From: a virus | Strand: one strand, 5' to 3' | UHGV virus genome: UHGV-1370838 | DNA length: 38,152 nucleotides | Shown: piece after piece, positions 4,309 through 38,152 of the stretch | Position numbering within the stretch: the stretch's first letter is position 1 | Layout: each line of letters begins with the position of its first letter | Notes under the pieces: generated by a model | Told to the model about the DNA's origin: nothing | Seen by the model: the letters and a program-made list of their open reading frames with translations, nothing else | Database searches by the model: none | Made by a program: the position numbers and the translations under genes

Positions 4309-6818
4309 TGCGGAATATCTCCGGAGAATCTCTGACGTTTCTGTGTCAGATTAAGAACAACGGGAGAACCATCATCTTTCAGCAGATAACCAGTACCAAG
4401 TTTCACCAGGTACTGACTATCGCCGTAACTTTGCAAACCATACTGACCAGGCGGTGTTTTTATCCCGGAGCCGACAACTTGTTCATTCCAAGCCTGATTA
4501 ACCTGCTTATCGAATTGCTCTGCAGACATTCCCCACGGCAAAAGGACATTCCCCATTCCGTTATAGTCATGCACGCCACCTGTAGCTACGTTAACAGCCT
4601 GTTTCCAGATATCAGTGTCAATTTCGCCTGATATCACGCCTTTTTTCGCCATCACACCAGCGTAATAGTCCTTTGCGATCTCGTATGCCATTGATGCCCC
4701 CTGAGCATCACCAGCAAATGCATCCTTCACCATGTCAGAAAACTCAAGGCGAAGATCAGCATCTTTAGGCATCGGAATACCTTTCGCATCATCAGTACCT
4801 TTACGAGCCGCCGCGCCAGTAAGAATTGTCTGCGCAGCGGTTTCAGGAGACACGGAAACATCCGGATTAAACCAGTTTTTTTCTGCCAAAATACCACCAG
4901 GCTTGTCCATCAGTATCCCGGCAACGGCAGCAGATGGAGCGTTGGCACTGATCTGCTGTAGTGCTGACATATACACCTGCCCACCACCAGTGCTCTGCCT
5001 GATGGTATCGAGATATGCTGCCTGTTGGGAAACTGGAGCATCACGAAAAAAAACACCGATCTGATTGGCCTCGTCTTTGGAAAAGAACGTCAGTGGAGTG
5101 CCATATGACTTAGCAAGGTCACTGACCTGAGCGGCACGCAAGGCAACGCTCTGTCCAAAGTTATCCTTATTGCTCATGTCGATAGGCTTTGCCTGTCCAG
5201 AGGCAAGAGAGAACTGCACAGGATCAGACTGCCGCTGCTTTATCACCTGATTTGCAGCCGAAACAACGTTGTCATAAAGAGCTGCGCGAGCCGCATAACC
5301 CTCCCCTGTCTCACCAGTATCCGGGCGTAATTGCTCAACATATGCTGTAATGCTGCTTGTCGGCATGTTGCGGAAAGAGCCTATATACTGTCCGGCGATC
5401 TGCGTATTCTTAAACTCGGTATATCGCAGGTTTCCTTCTCTGACTCCATAAGCTGCAATAAAATCAGCCTCACCAGGTGGGTTAGGAAATTCAACGCCAC
5501 GCATATACGCAGCCGTCGCATCGCGAACCTGGCTGTCAATCATCGTTTTATATTCAGCCTGCTGCTGCCGACGCAGTTGATCCGCCTGCCGCATAAAACT
5601 TGCCTGAGCCTCAGGAGATGCCGCATCGAATGCTGCATTACCGGTATAGCGTTTGGTGTTGGTTGGAATTGTTGATAAACCAAGTGCTGCACTGACACCA
5701 GCAGTTAACTGCTGATCACTGTATGGCTGGCTACCGTTCTCATGATGGATAATGGCTGCACAAAGCGCCTTCAGGGTATCAGGATTTGATGCATCGAGAG
5801 GCTCATCAGCAGAAACGCCAAGTTGTTCGCACACTGCTTTGATATACGACATAGTGTCATTTTTATCAGTAGGCGGTGCCCAGCGATTAATTATCTCGCT
5901 GACGGTATCAATACCCTGCCGCTGATACGACATCAGGTTCCGCCCTAATGCACGAATCCCGTGTTCAGGTGTTTCGAATTTAGCAAATCTACCATCATCA
6001 CCGGTCTGGCCTACCCACGGATTAGTTTTGCTGTATTCGAGATTTCCGGGGTTATTGTTGCGTATGCCACGGACACGCTCGGAAGAGCCACTATCTGTTA
6101 CAGCACGGCGAGCTCCAGCAGCAGTATCACTTAACTCGCCATTACTTTGGATGAATGCGGTCGCATTGTTTGCCGACCACTGGGACAATGCTGCATCAGC
6201 AACCTTCTCTTTAAACTCGATTTTCTTGGCCTGTATTTGCTCGTCGCTCCAGCCATGTGCAGCACCGTACTCCTCAATTTGCTGGAAAGTTTGCTTATTA
6301 GCCAATACGTATGCGGCATTGTCGCCATACAATGCTGCGGCATTTTTACCATTGTTCAGCAGCGTCGCCTGAAACTGACCTTCTTCGTAGGCATTAATTT
6401 GCCCTATCTCGTGCCGCCCGGCCTGCGTAGTGAACTGAATGCGCTGCTGCTGCGCCTGCTGCATGAAAGCATTACGAGCCTGTTCATCCGGCAGCGACAT
6501 AGCCAGTTGTTCGACCTGAGCATCAAACTGCTGCGTATACTCATGGCCTTTTCCAATAGCATTTTTCCCTTCCAGGTTAAGCAAACCTGTTTCAGGGTTA
6601 TTCAGCAGATCACTGCTTATCTGACTGAGGTTAAGAGATGCCTCCTGAGCCAGAGCGATATTGGCACGCTGTTTTGCCTGCCCCAAAACATCAATTGCCT
6701 CTGTCCCTGCCCGAACAAAAGCATCACCAATACCTGGCTGAGAAAACGTCTGCAAGCCTGCTGACTGAACTCCACGGCTCTCAACCTGGCGTCCGGATAC
6801 TGTTGGTACGACTGGCAT
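4305..6818 (-). CDS. internal virion protein with putative muralytic domain
   Basis: Start moved to ATG at 6816-6818 (GGAGG SD; TAATG overlap with upstream stop); contains GIRNNNPGNL motif that I recall from virion-associated peptidoglycan hydrolase domains. Confidence 0.6.
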   Translation of the reverse strand: MPVVPTVSGRQVESRGVQSAGLQTFSQPGIGDAFVRAGTEAIDVLGQAKQRANIALAQEASLNLSQISSDLLNNPETGLLNLEGKNAIGKGHEYTQQFDAQVEQLAMSLPDEQARNAFMQQAQQQRIQFTTQAGRHEIGQINAYEEGQFQATLLNNGKNAAALYGDNAAYVLANKQTFQQIEEYGAAHGWSDEQIQAKKIEFKEKVADAALSQWSANNATAFIQSNGELSDTAAGARRAVTDSGSSERVRGIRNNNPGNLEYSKTNPWVGQTGDDGRFAKFETPEHGIRALGRNLMSYQRQGIDTVSEIINRWAPPTDKNDTMSYIKAVCEQLGVSADEPLDASNPDTLKALCAAIIHHENGSQPYSDQQLTAGVSAALGLSTIPTNTKRYTGNAAFDAASPEAQASFMRQADQLRRQQQAEYKTMIDSQVRDATAAYMRGVEFPNPPGEADFIAAYGVREGNLRYTEFKNTQIAGQYIGSFRNMPTSSITAYVEQLRPDTGETGEGYAARAALYDNVVSAANQVIKQRQSDPVQFSLASGQAKPIDMSNKDNFGQSVALRAAQVSDLAKSYGTPLTFFSKDEANQIGVFFRDAPVSQQAAYLDTIRQSTGGGQVYMSALQQISANAPSAAVAGILMDKPGGILAEKNWFNPDVSVSPETAAQTILTGAAARKGTDDAKGIPMPKDADLRLEFSDMVKDAFAGDAQGASMAYEIAKDYYAGVMAKKGVISGEIDTDIWKQAVNVATGGVHDYNGMGNVLLPWGMSAEQFDKQVNQAWNEQVVGSGIKTPPGQYGLQSYGDSQYLVKLGTGYLLKDDGSPVVLNLTQKRQRFSGDIPQ

Positions 6819-7363
6819 TATAATCCTCCGGGTAATCTGGTTCCTGCTGCTGCCCCGATTGGCGCAGGGGTGCTTTGAGTAAACGGACTCCACGTCCCAC
6901 CAAACATCTGGTACGCACCGTATGCCTTCAGAGGCGCAGTGAGCAATGTTGTTGCTGCTCCCACATTCCCCTGTTTACGGGCTGAACTGGCTTCTGCTTT
7001 ATAGTTGGCAGCCTGAACCTGATAACCGTAAGCCTCGCGTTGCGCGTTATTCACCGTCGTCAGCGAATCAAGAGCGCCAAACTGGGCAGTGTCGCCAAAT
7101 ATATCCAGCGCGTTACCTGTAGATAAATCAGCGCCGGTAGCCCCCATTGTCGCTGCCTGTGTACCAAGCCGCTGTCGGGTCTCTCTGCGCCGTTGCTCAG
7201 CTTCAGCGTTACCCCTGTTTATTGCATCATTTGCCTGAGCTGTGGCTATATCTGCGTTCGCTTCTGCAACCTTCGAGGCATACTTTCCCTGTTGGTACTG
7301 GGTGTATGCCTGAATGCCACTCATGGCGAGCATTGCGCCACCAGCAATAACCGGATCGCACAT
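6818..7363 (-). CDS. virion core protein (gp14-like position)
   Basis: 181-aa ORF; ATG with GGAGAG SD; Ala/Gln-rich. Confidence 0.5.
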   Translation of the reverse strand: MCDPVIAGGAMLAMSGIQAYTQYQQGKYASKVAEANADIATAQANDAINRGNAEAEQRRRETRQRLGTQAATMGATGADLSTGNALDIFGDTAQFGALDSLTTVNNAQREAYGYQVQAANYKAEASSARKQGNVGAATTLLTAPLKAYGAYQMFGGTWSPFTQSTPAPIGAAAGTRLPGGL

Positions 7364-15974: not shown

Positions 15975-16042
15975 ATCAATGACTCCGTACGCAATTAAAT
16001 TATTACCAATTTAACCACATATGATTTATTTATCGTAGAAGG

Positions 16043-19778: not shown

Positions 19779-20320
19779 TACTTCACCTCCTGCGGCGGTT
19801 CCGGTAGCGGCATCCAGTGTGACGGTTTCCACGACGCACCAGGAATTATCCACCCATCATTAGCGTCAGGATGCCCCGGGATGTAAGTCGCCCATTTCAT
19901 TCGCCAGTCACCTTTCCTGTCAAACTCCACGGCAACAAGAACGGCTGTTTTGGTATTCGGCATTCGCTCACTACAGCTTATCCAACCATCCGGAGTTACC
20001 GGAGAGTTGCCATTTATATCGAAGTTTGGCTCTGCGTCCTGAACCAGGAGGATGTAACCATTCTTGGCAGTATCAAGTTCTAACGCCTCGGTGACGGTAC
20101 CGAAATAGCGATTACCTAAATCAGCATCACAAGTGCTTACATCAATGGAAACTTCCATCCCTTCGATTAATTCTGGCAAGTTGTAAGTTTGGCTTACAGG
20201 CTCTGCTTCCAGTGATGCCAGTGCAATTCGTGCCAGTTCCATTTGTTCGCCACGAGTAAGTCCGTTATCAAGCGGATTTTTAATGAATAATTCGATACGT
20301 TCTTTGGTTATAGCGCTCAT
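19778..20320 (-). CDS. DUF551-like protein
   Basis: C-terminal HWMPLPEPP motif typical of DUF551 as I recall it; ATG with AAAGGAGAG SD. Confidence 0.65.
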   Translation of the reverse strand: MSAITKERIELFIKNPLDNGLTRGEQMELARIALASLEAEPVSQTYNLPELIEGMEVSIDVSTCDADLGNRYFGTVTEALELDTAKNGYILLVQDAEPNFDINGNSPVTPDGWISCSERMPNTKTAVLVAVEFDRKGDWRMKWATYIPGHPDANDGWIIPGASWKPSHWMPLPEPPQEVK

Positions 20321-24031: not shown

Positions 24032-24111
24032 GGTAAGCCCTGTTATTAGTATTGGGATTACGGTTATTTTGTGCTGACACAAAAAAAAGATCAACCATAT
24101 TTGGTTTTTTA

Positions 24112-24126
24112 TTACCTTTGAGGTAC
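24112..24126. promoter_or_regulatory. operator-like palindrome TTACCTTTGAGGTAC (1 mismatch)
   Basis: Read directly, upstream of Zn-finger/O/P genes. Confidence 0.45.
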
Positions 24127-24131
24127 GAATA

Positions 24132-24160
24132 GATATGAAAAGACCGCCGGATGGCGGTCT
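24132..24160 (-). terminator. hairpin AGACCGCC-GGAT-GGCGGTCT downstream of cro-like gene
   Basis: Perfect 8-bp stem; on minus strand followed by TTTTCAT. Confidence 0.55.
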
Positions 24161-24181
24161 ACAGAGGGTTGTGGCTGGATA

Positions 24182-24412
24182 TCATGAGTAGAAGAAGTAT
24201 GCCAGTTCTGCTTTTGAGCGCAGCCATTGTCTTGATTTACAGGCTTTAAAAAGCCCATCCATCAATACCTTACCTGGCATTTTGCGCTTACCTGTTAAGT
24301 GAGTCTGGATATAGTGACTCGTCGTTCCGGCTTCCTGTGCGAAGGCTTCACGCTCATCCGGAGTAAGTGCAAGCCAGTGCTTTTTGAAATCGAAATGTCC
24401 GTTATCGCTCAT
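24182..24412 (-). CDS. Cro-like HTH regulator
   Basis: 76 aa; HTH segment TSHYIQTHLTGKRKMP; divergent from CI-like gene across operator cluster. Confidence 0.7.
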   Translation of the reverse strand: MSDNGHFDFKKHWLALTPDEREAFAQEAGTTSHYIQTHLTGKRKMPGKVLMDGLFKACKSRQWLRSKAELAYFFYS

Positions 24413-24437
24413 AGCTATTGCCTGATATTTATTTCAG

Positions 24438-24511
24438 ATAATAAATATTCACCCATAAGGTAACAAAAATCAAGGATAGTTACCTATGGGGTGCATTTAC
24501 CTGTTGGGTAA
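24438..24511. promoter_or_regulatory. tripartite operator region between cro-like and CI-like genes
   Basis: Three operator copies at 24449-24463 (TCACCCATAAGGTAA), 24480-24494 (TTACCTATGGGGTGC), 24497-24511 (TTACCTGTTGGGTAA); minus-strand -10 TATTAT at 24438-24443 with -35 TTGTTA 17 bp upstream. Confidence 0.65.
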
Positions 24512-24566: not shown

Positions 24567-25151
24567 ATGAAAAGTATCCAGGACGTCCGCAGGCAAAATC
24601 TCAACGACTTGATCGACCGTGAATTCAATGGTGTTCAGACGCGGATGGCAGAAAAACTTGGAACTCAGGCAAATCTGGTAAACCGCTGGGCTCTTGGCAA
24701 GAAGGTTATCGGCGACCAGGTTGCGCGAAAAATTGAAGCTGCCGCCAATAAACCCCGTAACTGGCTTGATATCGATCGCTCGCTTTCTCAGGAAGGTTTT
24801 CAGCCTGTCGGCCCAAGCGACATTGGTCAGCTGGCAGCTCACAACCTGGAACGCTGGATGAGTGAAAGCCGCGACCTTTCAACTCAGGGAAAACTTCACC
24901 GCGCATCCGGCGTCGCCCAGGTGACAATAAGCCGCCTGTTAAACAATGAGGTCAGCGTTTCCATTTCCACCCTGGAGAATGTTGCATCTGCATTCGGGCG
25001 TCACGGATATGAACTACTGATTCATCCGCATGACCCTGCGACCATCAACTATGATCGCTCGCGCTACGCATTGTTACCCGAAACCGAGAAAGCAAAGATC
25101 GAAAGTTACATTGAATTTGTCATCAACCAGAACGAAAAAAACAAACAATAA
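24567..25151 (+). CDS. CI-like prophage repressor with two HTH domains and no peptidase domain
   Basis: 194 aa; two XRE-type HTH segments (residues about 25-45 and 110-135); no Ser/Lys autopeptidase motif seen. Confidence 0.7.
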   Translation: MKSIQDVRRQNLNDLIDREFNGVQTRMAEKLGTQANLVNRWALGKKVIGDQVARKIEAAANKPRNWLDIDRSLSQEGFQPVGPSDIGQLAAHNLERWMSESRDLSTQGKLHRASGVAQVTISRLLNNEVSVSISTLENVASAFGRHGYELLIHPHDPATINYDRSRYALLPETEKAKIESYIEFVINQNEKNKQ

Positions 25152-29523: not shown

Positions 29524-30780
29524 TTATTTATTACTGTCTTCCATCCACCTCTCAAACTTCGACGGGGAGAACGGAATCAGATCCGTATGCTCCCCGTTAA
29601 TCCAGGAATCAATCATATCGGCCCACTGCTGCAACATGTAGGCGCGCTGTCTGGCGTATTCCGCTTTGTTATATACGGCGCGCACACCTTTCTGCTCATG
29701 TGCCAGAGCCTTTTCAATCCAGTCTGAAGGATAACCAGCCTCATGCAACAACGTACTGGCTGTACGGCGCATATCGTGTACGGTGAAGCCCTGAATATGC
29801 TCACCATCTTCATTTATTATTTTCACCGTTCTGTCGATCAGAGAGTTCAGCGCGGCATTAGATAATGGCTTCCGGAAATTGTAACGACCAGGAACCAGAT
29901 ATTCACTTCCACCAGCGCACATCTGCAACCCGACCAATATATCCTGAGCCTGTTTAGGCAGGTAAATAACGTGCGCCCGGCTTCCCTTCATGCGGTCTGA
30001 AGGAATTGTCCATGTCCATTTTTTAAAATCTATTTCATCCCACGTTGCGTTGGTGAATTCGCCTTTACGAACCATAGTGATAAGCACCAGCTTTAAAGCC
30101 ATTTTCATAGTGCCCATAGCACCAATGGCATCCAGCGTGCGGAAGAACAGGCCAATTTCTTCTGGTGTCAGTGTTCGCTCTCTTGGTTTAAATATGGCGA
30201 TAGACGAAGGTTTAATGTCAGCCGCAGGATTAAACAAACCATGACCACGGTCATTGGCGTGACGGTATACGCTGCTGATGATCTCCCTTGCCTGTACTGC
30301 TGTTGCCCGACCACCGCGTTCGACAATCCGGTCACACAAATCACGAACCATCGATGTGGTAATTTCAGTCATCATTTTGTTGCCAAGAACTGGAAGTATG
30401 TCACGGTCGATCACCGCCTGCTTCATTGCGCGGGTACTGTCAGCCAGGATGACGTGTTTCATATAACTGTCGGTATGTACCGTAAACGTCTCGGCACCAT
30501 GAATCTTTTTGATACCGTCACGTTTAGCCGCAGCCGGTGACTGGCCTGCTTTAAGCAGCTTCTTTGCAGCAATCAGTTCTTCTCGCGCTTCTGCCAGGCT
30601 GATACCGTCACGCCCATACTGCCCGATTACCAGTGTTTCGCGGCGACCGTTGATACGGTAGTCATAGCGAAACGAGACCGTGCCTGACGTAAGCACAGCT
30701 ACATACAGCCCGTCACGATCGGAGACCTTGTACAGTTTGTCCTGCGGCTTGAGGTTTTTTAATTTTGTATCGGTAAGCAC
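29524..30780 (-). CDS. int: tyrosine integrase (P4-like family)
   Basis: 418 aa; P4-type N-terminal arm-binding domain pattern and C-terminal catalytic domain; GTG start. Confidence 0.9.
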   Translation of the reverse strand: MLTDTKLKNLKPQDKLYKVSDRDGLYVAVLTSGTVSFRYDYRINGRRETLVIGQYGRDGISLAEAREELIAAKKLLKAGQSPAAAKRDGIKKIHGAETFTVHTDSYMKHVILADSTRAMKQAVIDRDILPVLGNKMMTEITTSMVRDLCDRIVERGGRATAVQAREIISSVYRHANDRGHGLFNPAADIKPSSIAIFKPRERTLTPEEIGLFFRTLDAIGAMGTMKMALKLVLITMVRKGEFTNATWDEIDFKKWTWTIPSDRMKGSRAHVIYLPKQAQDILVGLQMCAGGSEYLVPGRYNFRKPLSNAALNSLIDRTVKIINEDGEHIQGFTVHDMRRTASTLLHEAGYPSDWIEKALAHEQKGVRAVYNKAEYARQRAYMLQQWADMIDSWINGEHTDLIPFSPSKFERWMEDSNK

Positions 30781-30822
30781 AATTCACCCGTATAGAAACC
30801 ATTTTCATGACGGTATGAGAGT

Positions 30823-30837
30823 ATACCTTTAAGGTAA
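30823..30837. promoter_or_regulatory. operator-like palindrome ATACCTTTAAGGTAA (1 mismatch) upstream of int
   Basis: 43 bp upstream of int start; nested inside inverted repeat GACGGTAT...ATACCGTC. Confidence 0.45.
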
Positions 30838-30892
30838 TACCGTCACCTGTACCGCAGAAAAATATGGTGTAGAGTGAATAGAAATGAATACA

Positions 30893-30926
30893 TAAAAACA
30901 AAAACCCTCTGTAAAAACAGAGGGTT
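30893..30926 (-). terminator. intrinsic terminator ending the lysis operon
   Basis: AACCCTCTG-TAAAAA-CAGAGGGTT perfect 9-bp stem; minus-strand T-run TTTGTTTTT. Confidence 0.75.
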
Positions 30927-30979
30927 AAATTAGTATCTGAATAGGAATGAGTTGCTATGAGTTAGCTGTTAATCATTCC

Positions 30980-31016
30980 CACTCAATTATTTACGGACAC
31001 CATAACCAATTGAGTG
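30980..31016. repeat. 9-bp inverted repeat CACTCAATT / AATTGAGTG with 19-bp spacer (attP-region candidate)
   Basis: Read directly, in the noncoding stretch between int and lysis genes. Confidence 0.3.
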
Positions 31017-31097
31017 ATAACATTTTTCCAAAGATGAATTTTTCCCGTACCGTTTTATATACCGTCACCGGAAATCAGTACCATGAAAAATGCCATG

Positions 31098-31580
31098 CTA
31101 TCTGGTCAGGGTGTCGTACTGTTTTTCGCAGACTCTTCCGGCTTCGGCTGCCCGGTCAGCATACTCTGCCAGTTGTCTGTTTCTCTCGAGAGATTTGCTG
31201 AGCACGTCGGCAAGCAAAACTCCGGTATCTGCGGCTGACGACCCAGCGCCGACAATGGCGTTATAGTGCCTGAGCTGCTCACGGATGGCAACGAGCTGTT
31301 GCTGCAACCGGCCAGCGCGAGCGGCAGCATCAAGAGCATCATTGCGCGCCTGGTCGATCCTCTGCTGCGCTTCACGTTCATTGATCGATTTCTCCTGTTC
31401 GTAGTGCTGACGAACTCTCTCATCTTCGGTTTTGCGGTCTTCTTTCGCCTGTGCATACCCGGCGTCGTACTGACGACTGCCGTGCACATTCCAGGCAACA
31501 ACTCCTGATATGACCAGAACAGCAAGCACCGCCATGATAATCAACTGATTACGGTATGCTTTTACGAATGCCCAGATCAT
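31098..31580 (-). CDS. i-spanin (Rz-like)
   Basis: N-terminal TM segment then Gln/Arg/Ala-rich coiled coil; last gene of lysis cassette. Confidence 0.65.
31106..31381 (-). CDS. o-spanin (Rz1-like lipoprotein) nested in +1 frame
   Basis: Signal peptide with lipobox LAGC; Pro-rich mature part; start uncertain (31381 or 31342). Confidence 0.5.
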   Translation of the reverse strand: MNVKRSRGSTRRAMMLLMLPLALAGCSNSSLPSVSSSGTITPLSALGRQPQIPEFCLPTCSANLSRETDNWQSMLTGQPKPEESAKNSTTP

Positions 31581-32206
31581 ACGGCCAGCACCTTACTGGC
31601 AGTAACGTACCGCGCGCGCCGGTCGTCGATGCCGTTCCGGCCACCATTGATAATCAGAGTTACACGTGCAATATCTCCGGGATACTTCATGCAGCCTTTG
31701 CTGGAGAAGAACCACGCCGCGCTACGAGCCGCGTATTCGTCCTGCGTCAACAGCTCAGGATTCTCCAGCAGGTCCACTTTTAGACCGTTTCCGCAGTCAC
31801 GATAGTTATTCAAACCGGTAATCTGGATAAGCCCGCGCCCACGGTAAAACCAGCCGTCAGTCGGCCCGTTGTTCCCCATGCGCTTGCTATACACCAGATT
31901 GGCGATCGCACGCTGGCGCTCCAGCGGTAACGATGGCTCACCAGCACGACGGCCCAGCGCGTTGGCCTGGCCCTGAGTGAGGCGCCCGGCACGGACGAAT
32001 CCCGCCAGCCCAGTCACGCTGTAGTTGAAGTTCTCCTGCAGCCGGGTGAAGCCTCCAGACTCATGCCCGACCTGAGCAATAAACATTGCCTGATCTTCTG
32101 GTTTGCTGATACCAAACTCTTTCATCGCAGAAGTTATATGCGAGAACCAGCGTGCGGCCAGCGCCTCGCTAATACCAGCAGCTCGCTGGAATTGTTTAAT
32201 CTCCAT
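31577..32206 (-). CDS. endolysin, glycoside hydrolase family 19-like
   Basis: [16 protein letters not shown]-type GH19 motif; GAGG SD. Confidence 0.8.
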
Positions 32207-32504
32207 GTTTAGACCTCGTTATTTTGAAAATCTGAACGACGTTACCGCGAGTTTTAAGAACCGCAGCAAGCATGACAGCGTTGATAATGACCTCAGATAA
32301 ATCCACAGCCATTGGCGTGCGTAACCAGATTGCATAGACGACACGAACAGGAATACTGGCCGCAGCAACAATAAGGAAATAAGCAAGCCACCCTCCCCAC
32401 CTTCGATGTTGTGAACCGTTACGCCGGAATGTGACAACACGAATTGCTATGCCAGTACAAATAAGTGCATTGGTGATAAGCAAAACAAGCTCATTAGTTA
32501 CCAT
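32196..32504 (-). CDS. holin/antiholin-like membrane protein
   Basis: 102 aa with about 3 TM segments; between holin and endolysin. Confidence 0.55.
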
Positions 32505-32895
32505 CGCCTTTTCTCCCCGGAATTAACTCGCGTGGATTATCGGAACGGTGATAGAGCCAGATGCCAATTCGAACTGCAACGATTGCTGACACGAATGCAC
32601 CAGCAGAGAAAACAATCCCTTTCTCGAAAGAGTCCTGCGTGATGGTAGGGATCAGGCTGGCTATGCCGATAAGAATTGATGCTGCTGGTTTATAGAAAAG
32701 AAGTCCGCAGAGAAAGCTAAGCATCGATAAGAGTACGCGACGATGAATTGGGTACTCTACCGCAGAGGTAACAAAAATTACCGCACCAGCAAGAGCACCT
32801 AAAGCCACCTCAGGCGGTATACCAACGAACACGGACGCCAGTGCAGTCAGGCTTAACCCCTGATTTACTGACTCTGTTGTCAGCACATGCGCCAT
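32494..32895 (-). CDS. holin-like membrane protein
   Basis: ATG at 32893-32895 with GGTGG SD; multiple TM segments; first gene of lysis cassette. Confidence 0.6.
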   Translation of the reverse strand: MAHVLTTESVNQGLSLTALASVFVGIPPEVALGALAGAVIFVTSAVEYPIHRRVLLSMLSFLCGLLFYKPAASILIGIASLIPTITQDSFEKGIVFSAGAFVSAIVAVRIGIWLYHRSDNPRELIPGRKGDGN

Positions 32896-33000
32896 AGTGA
32901 CCACCGTTTATTGTGCATAAAGAACCCCCTTAGTTGGTGAGTTCATCATACACAATAAACCATATGTGGATTAATTTTGATCGGATAACTCTTAACGAAA

Positions 33001-33015
33001 TTACCCTAAAGGTGA
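33001..33015. promoter_or_regulatory. operator-like palindrome TTACCCTAAAGGTGA (1 mismatch)
   Basis: In divergent region between holin and acetyltransferase. Confidence 0.4.
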
Positions 33016-33051
33016 TATCATTAACGCATCTTACTCAAAACGATAGCGATT

Positions 33052-34911
33052 ATGTCTTCTTTAAAATACAGAACTGATATAGGCGGACTCAGGGCTATTG
33101 CTGTCATGGCAGTTGTCCTTTATCACTTCGGAGTCAAAGGGTTTTCTGGTGGGTTTTCAGGAGTAGATATATTCTTTGTTATATCAGGGTATCTGATGAC
33201 TGGAATAATTTACACAAAGATAGAAAATGAAAACTTTTCACTGTTAGGATTTTATCTTGATAGGGCAAGAAGGATTATACCTGCTTTAACTGTAGTTTCA
33301 GTTGCTGTTCTGATAGTTGGTTACTTCATTCTTTTACCTTCTGAATATGAATACCTGGCTCAACACGTAAGAAGTAGCCTTTTATTTTTCTCAAACGTTG
33401 AGTATTACCATAGCATTGATTATTTTGATACTGCATCAAAGCAGAAATGGCTTCTTCATACATGGTCGCTTTCTGTAGAGTGGCAGTTTTACATGGTATA
33501 TCCAATCATAATGATGGTAATTGCAAAGCTATTGGGCGCTAAGCATATAAGGTATGTTGTTGCCATCCTTGCAATTATATCATTTACTGCCTCAGTGTAT
33601 CTTTCTTATAATAATCAGGGGGCTGCATTTTATCTTCTGTCAAGCAGAGCTTGGGAGATGCTGGCTGGCGGCCTTGCCTACCTTCTTCCTACTATACAAA
33701 ATTCAAAACGCACTGCTGTATTTAGATGGATTGCCATAGCCTTTGCAGTATCGGGGATAGTCTTGCTTAACAGCTTAATGAAGTGGCCTGGGTATCTTGC
33801 CTTAATACCAGTCGTTTCTACTTTCTTTGTCATTTATCTTGGATGTAAAGATAACCTGTTACTTGATAATGCATTATCTCAATGGGTTGGGAAAATTTCA
33901 TACTCGGTATATCTGGTTCACTGGCCCATAGTTGTCTATATGTCAATGAATAAGATGGATGATATGGTTTATACAGTATCAGGTGTTGCCTTATCAATTC
34001 TTATTGGTGCCGCATCATTTTATTTAATTGAAAACCCTTCAAGAAAGGCACTTTCAAAATTTAAAAACGGCAGGTCCTTGAATGAATTAACTTTAATCGT
34101 GCTACCTGTAGGTGGTGTAGTTGGTTTGTGCTTCGCTGTACTATTGCTATCTGGAATTCCATCAAGGTTTTCGTTTGTCACAATGACGTCCGAACAGCTA
34201 AAAGAACAAATGAACAGGTATTGGGTTGATGGAGACAAGCCTCACCCTGTACCGAAGACAGGTGACAAAAAAATAGTAATAATCGGTAATTCTCATGGCA
34301 TAGATCTGACTTATGCACTTACTGAAAATGGGATGAAGGGTGATATAACTTATATAAGAACTACAAACTTATGTTCAAACTTTGGTTATACACCAAACGA
34401 CATGCCCTATGTAGAAAAGTGCAAAAAAATATTCAATGACGTGATCTCATCTCCAGCCATAGCTGAAGCTAACATTATAATCCTTCATGATGATTATGGC
34501 GTTGGCGATCTGTTCGGGATGCTTTACTCTATAGGCAAAATACAGGAGAGGACTAAAGGAGAAGTTATTGTATTTGGGCCTAAGATGAAGTTTACGGCAC
34601 AGCCAATGGAAATAATTAAGTCTGCTTTTAAATCTGGCGTAAACACAGTTGATGGGATAAATAAATACTCTAAAAAGTATTATGACAATAGTAGAGTTGA
34701 AATTAACAATACGATAAAAGGCTATCTTGGTAGCAACCAGCATTCGTATAAATACATAGATACGCTTGCCGAGCAGTGCGGAAAGTCAATGAATTGTGAC
34801 ATCCTTTCTACTAAAGGTGATTATCTTTACTTTGACAATAGTCATTTCACTCTAGAAGGCTCAAGGGAGTTTGGGAAAAAATTAAAAAATGACAAGCCAT
34901 TTATTTTTTAA
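33052..34911 (+). CDS. O-antigen acetyltransferase (acyltransferase-3 membrane domain fused to SGNH-like domain, OafA/Oac-type)
   Basis: 619 aa; N-terminal GGLRAIAV...LYHF motif and about 10 TM segments; C-terminal soluble domain with GNSH; visibly AT-rich versus flanks. Confidence 0.85.
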   Translation: MSSLKYRTDIGGLRAIAVMAVVLYHFGVKGFSGGFSGVDIFFVISGYLMTGIIYTKIENENFSLLGFYLDRARRIIPALTVVSVAVLIVGYFILLPSEYEYLAQHVRSSLLFFSNVEYYHSIDYFDTASKQKWLLHTWSLSVEWQFYMVYPIIMMVIAKLLGAKHIRYVVAILAIISFTASVYLSYNNQGAAFYLLSSRAWEMLAGGLAYLLPTIQNSKRTAVFRWIAIAFAVSGIVLLNSLMKWPGYLALIPVVSTFFVIYLGCKDNLLLDNALSQWVGKISYSVYLVHWPIVVYMSMNKMDDMVYTVSGVALSILIGAASFYLIENPSRKALSKFKNGRSLNELTLIVLPVGGVVGLCFAVLLLSGIPSRFSFVTMTSEQLKEQMNRYWVDGDKPHPVPKTGDKKIVIIGNSHGIDLTYALTENGMKGDITYIRTTNLCSNFGYTPNDMPYVEKCKKIFNDVISSPAIAEANIIILHDDYGVGDLFGMLYSIGKIQERTKGEVIVFGPKMKFTAQPMEIIKSAFKSGVNTVDGINKYSKKYYDNSRVEINNTIKGYLGSNQHSYKYIDTLAEQCGKSMNCDILSTKGDYLYFDNSHFTLEGSREFGKKLKNDKPFIF

Positions 34912-34919
34912 TTGATGAT

Positions 34920-34936
34920 GGGGAGCATTGCTCCCC
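34920..34936. other. hairpin GGGGAGC-ATT-GCTCCCC between convergent genes
   Basis: Perfect 7-bp stem; no U-tract on either strand. Confidence 0.4.
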
Positions 34937-34946
34937 ACGCATAACA

Positions 34947-37199
34947 TCAACCTATTTTAGTGTAAGTCCAGTTAAATGTTGCCGCGCCCTGACTTGTTAC
35001 CGCTACATTCCTTCCCGATGAAGAAAATGTTATGAATGCTCCGGCTTTTAATGGCGTTAGAGTTAATGAGCCATCATACATCGCTAGTTGTGTAGAAGAG
35101 TAGTTTGTGCCGCCGCCAGAACCCCATACACTAATGAGATACATCCCCTGCATATCAGGCAATGCAAACAATGTTGTTTCGGTGTTGGCATTTACGGATT
35201 GTGTTCCTTTTGCGGTGTAGAAACCAGGTGTCTGTAGCCCCGTTGATGATACTTGTTGAGTGTAACCGCCAGAAACAGTACCAGATATCGGGGTGCAGAA
35301 CCAGTTAACGTTACCCTGACTAACTACTGATAAAACCGGGGAGCCGCCTGCAGGCGCGCGCCAACGACCGCTGTACACGTCAATTCGGGATGTTGTGTCC
35401 TTAGCGTATAACGTAATAGGGTATCCACCAGTCCCGGAGTAAGGGATTGCGCTATCAGACAAGTCATCCTCAGAAGAATCGATTATAACCTGACTTGTCC
35501 CGGATGCCTTTATGAAAGAAACGACACCACTTGCCGCCGGGGCTACAGTTTTTAACTGATTTTGCCCTGCTGTGAGCCCGGATATTTTGCCATTAGTATT
35601 CTCAAAATGGAAAAGAGTTGCATCCCCACTACCATCTGTGGAAATTATATTTCCTTCCGCATCAAATCCCACAATGTTAACGCTGTGTGAGTTAATGAAA
35701 TGGACACCTGCTCCGCCGAATGAACCACCAGAAAGTGTAATGCTTGATTGGTCCATAGCGCAGTTGAGCATAGTTACAGACATAACGGCGCCAAATTGAT
35801 AAGGCGAGACGCATCCGGATGCGTAGCAAGTCTCCATCAAAATGGTCGTACCAAGCGCCTTAATAAAGCCGTCGTGGCAATTCCGCGCCCATACGTTTTG
35901 CAACTTAGTAAGGTAAGTTCCGGTGGCGTCGTAGAAACAGCGCCATGCACCATGTACTGTGCAGTTTTTAATCTCAGACATTTCAAGACCAGTAGTACCG
36001 GCTTCAGTGGAATAGAAATTAAATGCTATCTTCCCACCATCATCTTCAGGATTCGTTGGTGTGGTTCCTGGATCATAGAAAATATAAAGACCATCAATAA
36101 AAATCTGAATCATTTTTGTCGATAGGGAATCACCTTGATCTAAAGCAAAGGCTGATATATTCCCAACAATTGACATGAAAGACTGAGAACGGTTTATTGC
36201 ATCAGTCCCTTCACCAACAATTCTGACTGAATTATTAAATATAATTGTGGCATTATAATATCCAAGACCTTTTGGGATTAGCACCTTTTTACCAGTATTA
36301 CATGCGGCCTGCAGCGCCGCATAATCCAACGATTGCGTGAGAGACGTAACAAATGGATATACCATCTGAGCAGCTGATAGTGTTGAAAATATCTCGCTTA
36401 AAGGGTGAAGCGTTCCGTCAATTGTCGCTCCAAAATCAACAACACTAATGGCTTGTGCATTTTTTATATGCTGCGAAAGAGAAATTGCCCCCTGGTAAGG
36501 CTGCTTCACTGTTATCAGCGCATCACCTTTCCCGTCAGCGCTGCTGGCCAACTGGTTGAATACGTCCGCCGCCGTTCCTGAAGGCACAGGGAAAGGAACA
36601 GGCTTCCCGTTTTGAATGCCGATAATGCTGCCTTCAAGCTGAGCGAGTGGTGGCAGCGGATCGATATAAGCGTCAGGAACTCGGATGGTATGGTTGATGT
36701 TCGATAAAGCCGTGCTGTCCACATAATTCTTTGTGGCTGCATCCTGCGGGTTAACCGGGTCTTTCAGGTTCCGAATATAGTTGTTCAGCGCGTTATAATA
36801 ATTTGCTACGAATGACGGCTTGCGCAGCGCCAAGCTAAACCAACTTCGAACCTGCTGGATCAGCATCGTTAGCTTATCAAAAGCATCCTCATGCACTTCT
36901 GCAAAGAACTTACCCTGATTACGCAAATCAGTTTCCTGCGTAACCGGGAGGTCTCGTGATATAGAAATCTGATAACCGTTAGCTAACGCCTTCGACAGAA
37001 TTACATTACCGCCATTATATCCACCAGCCCCAGTGACAGTGTAATCAGTATCAAGAGCCAGCACAGCGATATTTTCGTCAAGGTCAACCACCTGTACTAC
37101 CAGATCAGATTCCTTGAAAACCCTAAAGGTATACGGAAATGATGTCGTAACGCCGTTACCTGTGTATTCGTTGTGGTCAACTTCGGTTGAGACCGTCAT
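34947..37199 (-). CDS. tailspike / tail fibre protein
   Basis: 750 aa; N-terminal particle-binding-type domain; Gly/Ser/Thr-rich beta-helix-like body; GGAG SD. Confidence 0.8.
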   Translation of the reverse strand: MTVSTEVDHNEYTGNGVTTSFPYTFRVFKESDLVVQVVDLDENIAVLALDTDYTVTGAGGYNGGNVILSKALANGYQISISRDLPVTQETDLRNQGKFFAEVHEDAFDKLTMLIQQVRSWFSLALRKPSFVANYYNALNNYIRNLKDPVNPQDAATKNYVDSTALSNINHTIRVPDAYIDPLPPLAQLEGSIIGIQNGKPVPFPVPSGTAADVFNQLASSADGKGDALITVKQPYQGAISLSQHIKNAQAISVVDFGATIDGTLHPLSEIFSTLSAAQMVYPFVTSLTQSLDYAALQAACNTGKKVLIPKGLGYYNATIIFNNSVRIVGEGTDAINRSQSFMSIVGNISAFALDQGDSLSTKMIQIFIDGLYIFYDPGTTPTNPEDDGGKIAFNFYSTEAGTTGLEMSEIKNCTVHGAWRCFYDATGTYLTKLQNVWARNCHDGFIKALGTTILMETCYASGCVSPYQFGAVMSVTMLNCAMDQSSITLSGGSFGGAGVHFINSHSVNIVGFDAEGNIISTDGSGDATLFHFENTNGKISGLTAGQNQLKTVAPAASGVVSFIKASGTSQVIIDSSEDDLSDSAIPYSGTGGYPITLYAKDTTSRIDVYSGRWRAPAGGSPVLSVVSQGNVNWFCTPISGTVSGGYTQQVSSTGLQTPGFYTAKGTQSVNANTETTLFALPDMQGMYLISVWGSGGGTNYSSTQLAMYDGSLTLTPLKAGAFITFSSSGRNVAVTSQGAATFNWTYTKIG

Positions 37200-37303
37200 G
37201 TTAAATCTCCAGATAGTCGCAGCACCCGTTGCGCCGCATATCTGGTTATTCTATTACCTGAAAAACCATATATGGATAGAAAGGCTGTAAATACGAATAG
37301 ATA

Positions 37304-37318
37304 TTACCTTTCAGGTAA
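37304..37318. promoter_or_regulatory. operator palindrome TTACCTTTCAGGTAA
   Basis: Perfect copy between tailspike start and the LexA-box gene. Confidence 0.55.
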
Positions 37319-37355
37319 TTTGCAAAACGTGCTGGATAGCAAACAAATTATTTGC

Positions 37356-37375
37356 TACTGTATAAATATACAGTT
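37356..37375 (+). promoter_or_regulatory. LexA (SOS) box TACTGTATAAATATACAGTT
   Basis: CTGT-N8-ACAG with AT-rich spacer, perfect dyad; immediately upstream of 37381/37396 ORF. Confidence 0.75.
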
Positions 37376-37395
37376 ATTGCATGGAGAAGATTAAG

Positions 37396-37653
37396 ATGCA
37401 GCAGTATCACTATCCACTGGAAGACGGATTTACCGAAAGGATTCACACGCCGGGAGGCGTCAGGTCACTGGTGGAGGGATCGCACTTGATGAAATTACTC
37501 CGGGATCTCGATAAGGATGGATTTAATGTCGATGGCCCACTTGCCGAACTGACTGCACTGATTAACTACGTCACCAGCTCACAGATGTCTATGCGGGATC
37601 TGCAAACACATCTCGACTATTGTGCCGAACAATTACGAAAACAAACCCGGTAA
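37396..37653 (+). CDS. SOS-regulated small protein, candidate antirepressor
   Basis: ATG at 37396 has GGAG SD (37381 ATG lacks one); 85-90 aa; LexA box overlaps its promoter. Confidence 0.5.
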   Translation: MQQYHYPLEDGFTERIHTPGGVRSLVEGSHLMKLLRDLDKDGFNVDGPLAELTALINYVTSSQMSMRDLQTHLDYCAEQLRKQTR

Positions 37654-37677
37654 ATTTAAAGGCCGCAAGAGCGGCCT

Positions 37678-37689
37678 GTGACATGTCAC
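37678..37689. repeat. perfect 12-bp palindrome GTGACATGTCAC (copy 3 of 3)
   Basis: 25 bp after stop of 37381-37653; preceded by hairpin GGCCGC-AAGA-GCGGCC. Confidence 0.8.
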
Positions 37690-37982
37690 GCTCTTTTTCT
37701 GAATGATAGCCATTCGAAAAATGATGACATTCCACCGCAGACAATAGCAAAGATGATCCCACCAAAGAAGAGAAGGCCAGCCTGCCACCACTCCCACCGC
37801 CATACATCCACAGCGCCAACCATACCAACAATCGCTCCAACAAATGGAATATAGCTCACGATGAAAGCAATGGGGGCTGCAATTATCCAGTGCAATCCCC
37901 ACCATGATTCAAGCCCAGCCATAATTGCTGCCAACTGAAAAAGACCAACGACGATATAAACAATGAATCCTATAGCTTGCAT
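37686..37982 (-). CDS. small Trp-rich integral membrane protein
   Basis: 98 aa; about 3 TM segments; AGGTGA SD. Confidence 0.55.
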   Translation of the reverse strand: MQAIGFIVYIVVGLFQLAAIMAGLESWWGLHWIIAAPIAFIVSYIPFVGAIVGMVGAVDVWRWEWWQAGLLFFGGIIFAIVCGGMSSFFEWLSFRKRA

Positions 37983-37993
37983 GTAGTCACCTA

Positions 37994-38152
37994 TTTACCC
38001 AGTAAAAATCAGAGGCCTCCCCTCAATAAGGCTTGCAACAAGAACTATTCCCTGCACAACAAAGATGAACCAGCAAATAGCTTGAGTCTGAGGGTTAAGA
38101 AAATATTTGTAGCGGTCAATAAATAACAACCCACCAGAAATTATCACACTCA
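37994..38152 (-). CDS. partial hydrophobic ORF running off the right edge
   Basis: Open minus-strand frame ending ...LIEGRPLIFTG; start lies outside the window. Confidence 0.3.

Follow-up and report, generated by a model that had tools for sequence, protein, structure and literature searches.

In phage phiV10, the oac product modifies the O157 antigen and abolishes phiV10 binding and plating (PMC11854483, PMC9558356). In the related phage epsilon15, lysogenic conversion is the defining phenotype. A review of the acyltransferase-3 (AT3) family raises the question of what makes a fused SGNH domain necessary in some O-antigen acetyltransferases and not in others (PMC9558356). The present analysis concerns an oac-like gene coding for a 619-aa protein in the UHGV virus genome UHGV-1370838, a stretch of 38,152 nucleotides (the window) that represents a complete epsilon15-like (Uetakevirus) temperate podophage genome, with most of its genes on the minus strand. 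The backbone relatives detected by megablast and tblastn are phiV10, epsilon15, SPN1S, Tyrion, PAS61 and BUCT554. Judged from its sequence, the gene, located between the lysis genes and the tailspike gene, probably encodes an AT3–SGNH O-acetyltransferase of the OafA/OafB type with a role in O-antigen conversion.

The initial annotation of this DNA, made from the letters alone, had described an AT3 membrane domain followed by a C-terminal SGNH domain in the 619-aa open reading frame (ORF). A hidden Markov model search confirmed this architecture, with both Pfam domains above their gathering scores: Acyl_transf_3 (PF01757) covers aa 10-319 (E 1e-31, 110.7 bits against a cut-off of 31) and the fused SGNH domain PF19040 covers aa 402-611 (E 8e-13, 49 bits against a cut-off of 27). 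The protein also matches PHROG 6705 ('O-antigen acetylase') over its full length with 598 bits, and public databases annotate the gene as 'acyltransferase family protein' or 'O-antigen acetylase'.

Residues R14, H25, S45, G46, G412, S414, C457, D595 and H598 are invariant across 32 homologues, with identities down to 32%. R14 and H25 form the R-x10-H motif of the first helix, while S45 and G46 fall within the FFxISG block. In the C-terminal domain, G412 and S414 belong to SGNH block I, and D595 and H598 to block V (Asp-x-x-His). At the sequence level, all of the defining features of the OafA/OafB type are therefore present. The acceptor sugar is not readable from the sequence.

Structural comparisons point in the same direction. 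A single-sequence phmmer search of the PDB with the acyltransferase gave no match; a profile of 32 sequences matched only 6SE1 (E 2.9e-14), the periplasmic SGNH domain of a Salmonella lipopolysaccharide (LPS) acetyltransferase, with the catalytic blocks (GDS, D..H) aligned. The AlphaFold2 model built on the 32-homologue alignment has a mean pLDDT (predicted local distance difference test) of 90.2 and consists of a helical bundle, a helix at residues 342-365 and an alpha/beta domain. Foldseek comparison of this model with the PDB places 6SE1 at the top (probability 1.0, target template-modelling (TM) score 0.65), followed by GDSL esterases. The maximum of the hydropathy scan is the segment 348-366, in the position expected for the linking 11th helix. 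According to the predicted topology, an 11th transmembrane helix at about aa 342-366 would place the SGNH domain in the periplasm.

The genomic position of the gene was compared in seven named relatives, taking as the slot the interval between the tailspike gene and the cassette of holin-like, holin, endolysin and Rz genes. All seven carry an O-antigen-modifying cargo there: wzy-beta with an inhibitor of the alpha-polymerase in epsilon15, a 338-aa AT3-only oac in phiV10 (a superinfection immunity function according to its annotation and the literature), gtrA with acetylase fragments in SPN1S, a 624-aa acetylase in Tyrion, gtrABC in BUCT554, a 618-aa acetylase in PAS61 and a 368-aa oac in TL-2011b. 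The layout that had been expected of a temperate phage is thus a known rule for the genus, not a peculiarity of the phage in the window.

A wider sample of 80 viral contigs was retrieved through the holin-like protein, and cargos were called by an ORF-based scan combined with Pfam. All seven distinct cargos divergent from the lysis genes proved to be AT3 proteins, one of them an AT3–SGNH protein. Divergent cargo is absent from the slot in the majority of the 38 distinct contig architectures. Where a contig has no cargo, tailspike and lysis genes share a strand, and the tailspike gene stops 69-600 nt before the lysis genes. In PAS61 (4902-5008) and TL-2011b (6811-6880), the acetyltransferase gene is co-directional with the tailspike gene and the operator described below is absent upstream. 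Instead, TL-2011b has a promoter close to consensus (TTGACA-17-TAATCT), and its acetyltransferase gene is followed by a terminator-like hairpin. These co-directional cargos are a different wiring of the same cargo.

In the window, oac and the tailspike gene are convergent, separated by a gap of 35 bp, as the tail-to-tail description in the initial annotation had it. Homology to phiV10 extends from the lysis genes through 33022 and resumes at 36718, around codon 160 of the tailspike gene, where the particle-binding domain ends; homology to BUCT554 and SPN1S ends at 33017. From the two phiV10 breaks, it follows that the mobile unit is 33023-36717. The earlier view of oac alone as the acquired unit has therefore to be abandoned, since the receptor-binding part of the tailspike was exchanged along with oac.

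The N-terminal domain of the tailspike shows 76-94% nucleotide identity to phiV10, PAS61 and Tyrion, and matches aa 1-159 of Dpo31/36 in the PDB. The tailspike has local matches to LKA1 gp49, phi297 gp27 and Sf6 tailspikes, and the best phage relatives of its receptor-binding part (57-59% identity) come from lytic E. coli siphophages, such as JeanPiccard, where they are lateral tail fibres. Reading an O-serogroup from these relatives was attempted and no assignment was possible, the best matches being lateral tail fibres of undefined specificity. At 35136-35454 (tailspike aa ~582-688), a 320-bp patch cannot be aligned to the otherwise 86-97% identical tailspikes of E. coli prophages, which suggests a mosaic exchange inside the receptor-binding part.

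The two exchanged genes also vary together. In two E. coli prophages, oac-region DNA is 92-97% identical and the tailspikes are about 80% identical; a metagenomic copy of Oac with 87% identity is again convergent with a tailspike, 72% identical to that of the window; and an Oac of 30% identity accompanies a tailspike that is 59% identical overall and 48% in its C-terminal part. Closer oac copies accompany closer tailspikes, a trend on three points. This co-variation supports the coupling of receptor recognition to receptor modification.

The nearest protein to the acyltransferase is an E. coli prophage copy (99% identity cluster, 50 member sequences). The same oac–tailspike pair was located in E. 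coli FT130 and MFDS1019527, both complete, and in one draft genome, in a prophage adjoining yfgI; this makes the cassette rare (2 of 5426 complete E. coli genomes). More distant relatives include a protein of 51% identity in a Mu-like phage, beside a lysozyme gene, another in Citrobacter, beside a Tail_spike_N remnant, and chromosomal orphans of ~45% identity between yedD and fliE in Enterobacter. The lineage is largely phage-borne, repeatedly near tail or lysis genes. In one viral contig (L027), the cargo, whose protein is ~30% identical, has the 5′ untranslated region and roughly the first 50 codons in common with oac of the window (33023-33200), and this suggests a recombination joint within the gene start.

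By analogy with the OafA/OafB type, the AT3 domain (R14-x10-H25) would carry acetyl groups from cytoplasmic acetyl-CoA across the inner membrane, and the periplasmic SGNH domain (S414, D595, H598), held by the 11th helix, would acetylate the lipid-linked O-antigen repeat. The acetylated glycan would most likely be the O-antigen to which the tailspike binds or which it cleaves, because oac and the receptor-binding part of the tailspike form one exchanged unit. Such acetylation would keep the phage from adsorbing again (superinfection exclusion) and alter the serotype, as described for phiV10 Oac; in the literature, a block on adsorption of the carrying phage to its lysogens is documented only for phiV10 and epsilon15. 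We infer this substrate and this exclusion phenotype from homology, synteny and the precedent of phiV10 Oac in the same genus, which together lend support to the serotype conversion and superinfection exclusion put forward in the initial annotation.

Two considerations weigh against an O-antigen acetyltransferase. Block I reads GNS in the 619-aa protein, GDS being usual, and AT3–SGNH proteins include peptidoglycan O-acetyltransferases, among others (PMC9558356). The enzyme could thus acylate another surface glycan (peptidoglycan, enterobacterial common antigen, capsule or LPS core), with a benefit unrelated to the phage receptor, and it fits this possibility that the Enterobacter relatives of ~45% identity adjoin flagellar genes and not O-antigen clusters. 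However, 6SE1, the sole PDB relative by profile and the first by fold, is a domain of an O-antigen acetyltransferase, and OatA-type domains were unmatched. The slot of the named relatives holds wzy, gtr or oac and the divergent cargos of the contigs are all AT3, oac was exchanged with the receptor-binding part of the tailspike, and the relatives of 51-87% identity in other phages adjoin tailspike or lysis genes. A target other than the O-antigen is, in consequence, very unlikely.

The expression of this enzyme would depend on the region in front of the gene, where the initial annotation had reported a phage operator at 33001-33015. The sequence TTACCCTAAAGGTGA fits nine of the ten specified positions of TTACC-N5-GGTAA and is a genuine member of the repressor operator family. 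Allowing at most one mismatch, TTACC-N5-GGTRA has 35 matches (both strands counted) versus 2.7 expected from shuffles. The operators cluster at eight loci (16065; 19207/19225; 22104/22166; 24112-24497; 25209/25271; 30823; 33001; 37304), which are syntenic with the repressor-binding sites, (A)TTACC-N5-GGTAA(T), of the epsilon15 GenBank record; that annotation and the motif statistics are the basis of the operator identity. The window protein encoded at 24567-25148 is a homologue of the SPC32H repressor (PDB 5D50, E 4e-42). Operators front the portal, terminase, tailspike, integrase and early operons, and the repressor seems to act directly at many promoters, not only in an immunity region. Upstream of the integrase gene, the operator at 30823-30837 has a single mismatch (GGTAT) shared by phiV10 (6371), SPN1S (7487), Tyrion (7069) and BUCT554 (2770), in keeping with a conserved variant operator.

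The operator in front of oac is also conserved in position. Its counterpart in epsilon15 is an unannotated perfect operator at 24704, 42 nt upstream of the conversion gene 22, and a counterpart is present at the equal position in 17 distinct junctions. In all eight divergent-cargo genomes that were directly compared, the operator lies ~106 nt from the holin-like gene, with wzy, AT3-only, gtr or AT3–SGNH cargos. Among the 38 dereplicated contig architectures, those with a divergent AT3 cargo have the operator in eight cases and lack it in one, versus three with and 26 without it when there is no divergent cargo (Fisher p = 2.8e-5).

A promoter scan predicts a rightward promoter, TTAACG-18-TATCAT with TG upstream, in which the operator sits inside the 18-nt spacer. 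The CT(C/T)TAAC block around the -35 is semi-conserved across relatives. In 14 of the 17 distinct junctions, GGTGA (not GGTAA) is directly followed by TAnnnT, so that the -10 is TG-extended; of 50 other operator flanks, used as a control, only four have this hexamer pattern behind the operator. The ATG of oac is fixed because R14 must be included, and only 30 nt lie between the -10 and this start codon; therefore, no other promoter fits. This bears on the description of the gene as a moron. The distinct composition stands (37.0% versus 50% GC), whereas a promoter of its own does not, as the -35/operator/-10 unit belongs to the backbone homology, which runs to 33022, and fronts unrelated cargos. 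Since oac did not bring the promoter along, the gene departs from the textbook moron. The slot formed by a weakened operator and an extended -10, as read from these junctions, is a modest new observation. Phase variation by Dam/OxyR, as in P22 gtr, was considered and discarded: the intergenic region has one GATC, which is unconserved across relatives.

In the regulation that we propose, the backbone promoter (TTAACG, 18-nt spacer, TGaTATCAT) would initiate transcription near 33028, and the conserved G-for-A change in the spacer operator would also make the TG of the extended -10. Given the position of the operator, bound repressor plausibly hinders RNA polymerase at the oac promoter. The repressor would damp this promoter without silencing it: oac would be expressed in a burst upon infection or induction and only weakly in the lysogen, and the absent Shine–Dalgarno sequence would limit its expression further. 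We infer both this start and how the repressor acts, and partial repression is proposed here tentatively.

This proposal is preferred to a simple off-switch for three reasons. First, epsilon15 converts its lysogens despite a perfect operator at the equivalent place. Second, the conserved mismatch weakens the palindrome and strengthens the promoter. Third, the divergent lysis operon must be controlled from the same 147-bp intergenic region, which contains no other operator. In this respect, the earlier statement that the gene is 'under repressor control rather than constitutive' is plausible from the placement of the operator in the promoter spacer but only partly supported: a full shut-off in the lysogen would undo the proposed function, and a simple off-switch conflicts with epsilon15 conversion. 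Two features sit uneasily with the proposed scheme as well: an operator in the spacer normally means tight repression in the lysogen, a poor fit with lysogenic conversion, and, without a U-tract at the hairpin that separates oac from the tailspike gene, the 3′ limit of the oac transcription unit is undefined. Though stable, this hairpin is not called an intrinsic terminator here, since a U-tract is absent from both strands and the terminator scan makes no call there.

The control of the lysis genes provides the strongest competing explanation, namely that 33001-33015 is chiefly or exclusively an operator of the divergent lysis operon, with the acetyltransferase promoter effectively constitutive or escaping repression. 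The lysis operon must be silent in the lysogen, and a convergent cargo cuts the lysis genes off from the tailspike unit; the cargo-free relatives have their lysis genes 69-600 nt behind the tailspike, on the same strand, and lack the operator. In addition, 33001-33015 is the sole operator in the 147-bp intergenic region, and epsilon15 lysogens are converted despite their perfect operator. The layout of an operator, ~30 nt, the palindrome AACCATATRTGG and a gene also recurs at the leftward tailspike and portal operons. This palindrome is present at 16013-16026, 24093-24106, 32958-32971 and 37264-37277, on the gene-proximal side of the operators of leftward operons and 5-38 nt away from them (16 matches with at most two mismatches versus 5.1 expected), and could be a late-promoter or leader element.

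Nevertheless, no convincing conserved leftward -10/-35 pair was found, and the centre of the operator is ~45-50 nt upstream of plausible leftward starts, yet squarely in the rightward spacer. TL-2011b-type phages, with a co-directional cargo and a terminator-like hairpin, have no operator before the lysis genes. An operator dedicated to lysis is thus possible, if rather doubtful. The lysis genes of convergent-cargo phages may have a leftward promoter of their own; a search for leftward sigma-70 promoters gave good candidates in SPN1S and Tyrion and poor ones in the window. Read-through from the tailspike gene across antisense oac is also conceivable because the hairpin between the two genes has no U-tract.

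The composition and translation signals of oac raise a different possibility. The gene has a GC content of 37.0%, and 33.4% at third codon positions, against 49-50% for the window and 45.7% for the tailspike gene, in agreement with the AT-rich, foreign composition noted initially. The weak ribosome-binding site was likewise borne out: oac has no Shine–Dalgarno sequence, and anti-Shine–Dalgarno pairing of the 21 nt before its ATG amounts to -0.2 kcal/mol, versus -3.8 to -8.1 in five genes nearby. A Shine–Dalgarno sequence is likewise missing from the holin-like gene at its GTG start. With its low GC, the missing Shine–Dalgarno sequence and the operator in its promoter, oac might be a decaying or silent cargo, AT-rich, probably H-NS-bound, repressed and with no phenotype in the lysogen. 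The relative ZX5 gives its host no detectable phenotype (PMC9782041), a comparison in which the cargo content of ZX5 was not included. Against decay, the 619-codon frame is intact with all catalytic residues retained, the 99% cluster contains 50 sequences, the same arrangement occurs in independent E. coli prophages and the -10 element is kept across cargos. A silent gene is accordingly highly improbable.

Returning to partial repression, the conserved elements could be viewed more broadly as a fixed plug-in slot, in which any O-antigen cargo, brought in along with a matching tailspike head, would be expressed from a backbone promoter in a burst and then at a throttled level in the lysogen, and in which the weakened operator of that promoter would gate the lysis operon as well. 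This generalization is unlikely. If it were true, receptor modification would act mainly at establishment and during lytic growth, not only as a standing trait of the lysogen, for example keeping progeny from adsorbing to infected cells and debris.

Table 1. Coordinates of the oac–tailspike region and of related elements in the window.
Feature	Position	Strand	Remarks
Integrase gene	29524-30780	-	Left of oac
Rz (DUF2514), GH19 endolysin and holin genes		-	Left of oac; lysis cassette
Holin-like membrane protein gene	32494-32904	-	Nearest lysis gene left of oac
Stem-loop, lysis-operon leader	32906-32960	-	20-nt inverted repeat; backbone
-35-like hexamer TTAACG	32992-32997	+	Promoter scan
Operator TTACCCTAAAGGTGA	33001-33015		Common to divergent lysis and cargo units; backbone
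Predicted TG-extended -10, TGaTATCAT	33013-33021	+	Abuts operator; within backbone homology (ends 33022)
Exchanged cassette: oac and tailspike receptor-binding part	33023-36717		Homology breaks
oac-like gene, 619 aa	33052-34911	+	Between lysis genes and tailspike gene
AT3 domain of oac	33079-34008	+	Pfam
SGNH domain of oac	34255-34884	+	Pfam
GC hairpin between convergent oac and tailspike genes	34919-34937		-17 / -22 kcal/mol
Tailspike gene, 750 aa	34947-37199	-	Right of oac
Tailspike receptor-binding and catalytic part, aa 161-750	34947-36719	-	PHROG 8649, full-length match
Tailspike N-terminal particle-binding domain, aa 1-160	36720-37199	-	Backbone
Perfect operator, tailspike promoter region	37304-37318		-35/operator/-10 build; syntenic with epsilon15 19895-19911

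Other elements of the neighbourhood are listed in Table 1. The stem-loop in the leader of the lysis operon has a predicted RNA folding energy of -31 to -36 kcal/mol (z = -3.5) and encloses a Shine–Dalgarno-like AAGGGGG. Its epsilon15 counterpart is annotated RNaseIII, and the stem-loop is kept even in cargo-free relatives. A search of Rfam at E <= 1 gave zero matches across 30700-38152. Beyond the tailspike, a perfect LexA box, TACTGTATAAATATACAGT, is found at 37356-37374 (chance expectation 0.01), just upstream of a 90-aa ORF (37381-37653, plus strand) that has a match to PHROG 450 and a weak one to an anti-repressor PHROG. The LexA box and this ORF, taken with the SPC32H-type repressor (24567-25148), look like a LexA-controlled antirepressor induction switch.

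O-antigen acetylation by prophages alters the serotype and phage susceptibility of E. coli, and possibly its immune recognition. The cassette constitutes a matched enzyme–receptor pair, with an uncharacterised AT3–SGNH lineage and an uncharacterised tailspike, for defining a new O-acetyl epitope. The conserved promoter–operator slot offers a handle on the timing of receptor modification relative to the lysis–lysogeny switch. The gene also bears on the question of the fused SGNH domain, as phiV10 Oac occupies the same slot without one. Both the promoter–operator slot and the tailspike head exchanged with oac are neat particulars and add no new principle.

In comparison with known systems, phiV10 Oac is similar in its genus (Uetakevirus), its slot, its convergence with the tail fibre gene, and its operator and TG-extended -10. 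Unlike the window protein, it has 338 aa, is AT3-only and shows no similarity to the 619-aa protein detectable by BLAST; the receptor-binding part of the phiV10 tailspike is also unrelated to that of the window. OafA and OafB share with the 619-aa protein the two domains, the R-x10-H motif, the Ser/Asp/His triad, the 11th helix and the periplasmic SGNH domain. Nevertheless, the SGNH domains of OafB and OafA are only ~16% identical to that of the window and contain GDS instead of GNS. In addition, oafA and oafB are chromosomal loci outside the O-antigen cluster, oafA being on a phage remnant (PMC9558356, PMC7380047), whereas the window gene is part of an intact Uetakevirus.

Tyrion gp23 (624 aa) and the PAS61 protein (618 aa) resemble the window protein in genus, slot, two-domain length and the GDSx and DxxH motifs. 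However, only their AT3 halves align with it (45-48% identity), the SGNH halves being unalignable by BLAST, and the PAS61 gene differs further in being co-directional with the tailspike gene and having no upstream operator. Genes 21/22 of epsilon15 (beta-polymerase and alpha-polymerase inhibitor) and gtrABC of BUCT554 have in common with oac the slot, the convergence, the operator position and the logic of modifying the phage's own receptor. In contrast, epsilon15 21/22 and the gtrABC genes of BUCT554 and P22-like phages act by a change of polymerase linkage or by glucosylation, through unrelated proteins. Sf6 Oac is another phage-borne AT3 O-antigen acetyltransferase, which shields lysogens from the phage's own endorhamnosidase tailspike (PMC9558356). 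It differs in being AT3-only, in belonging to a P22-like phage and in adjoining the integrase gene.

Two-domain acetylases in the slot (Tyrion, PAS61) and an oac gene beside the tailspike in phiV10 are, therefore, already known. By analogy, the closest counterpart of the window gene in mechanism would be OafA/OafB, and its counterpart in position and presumed role would be phiV10 Oac.

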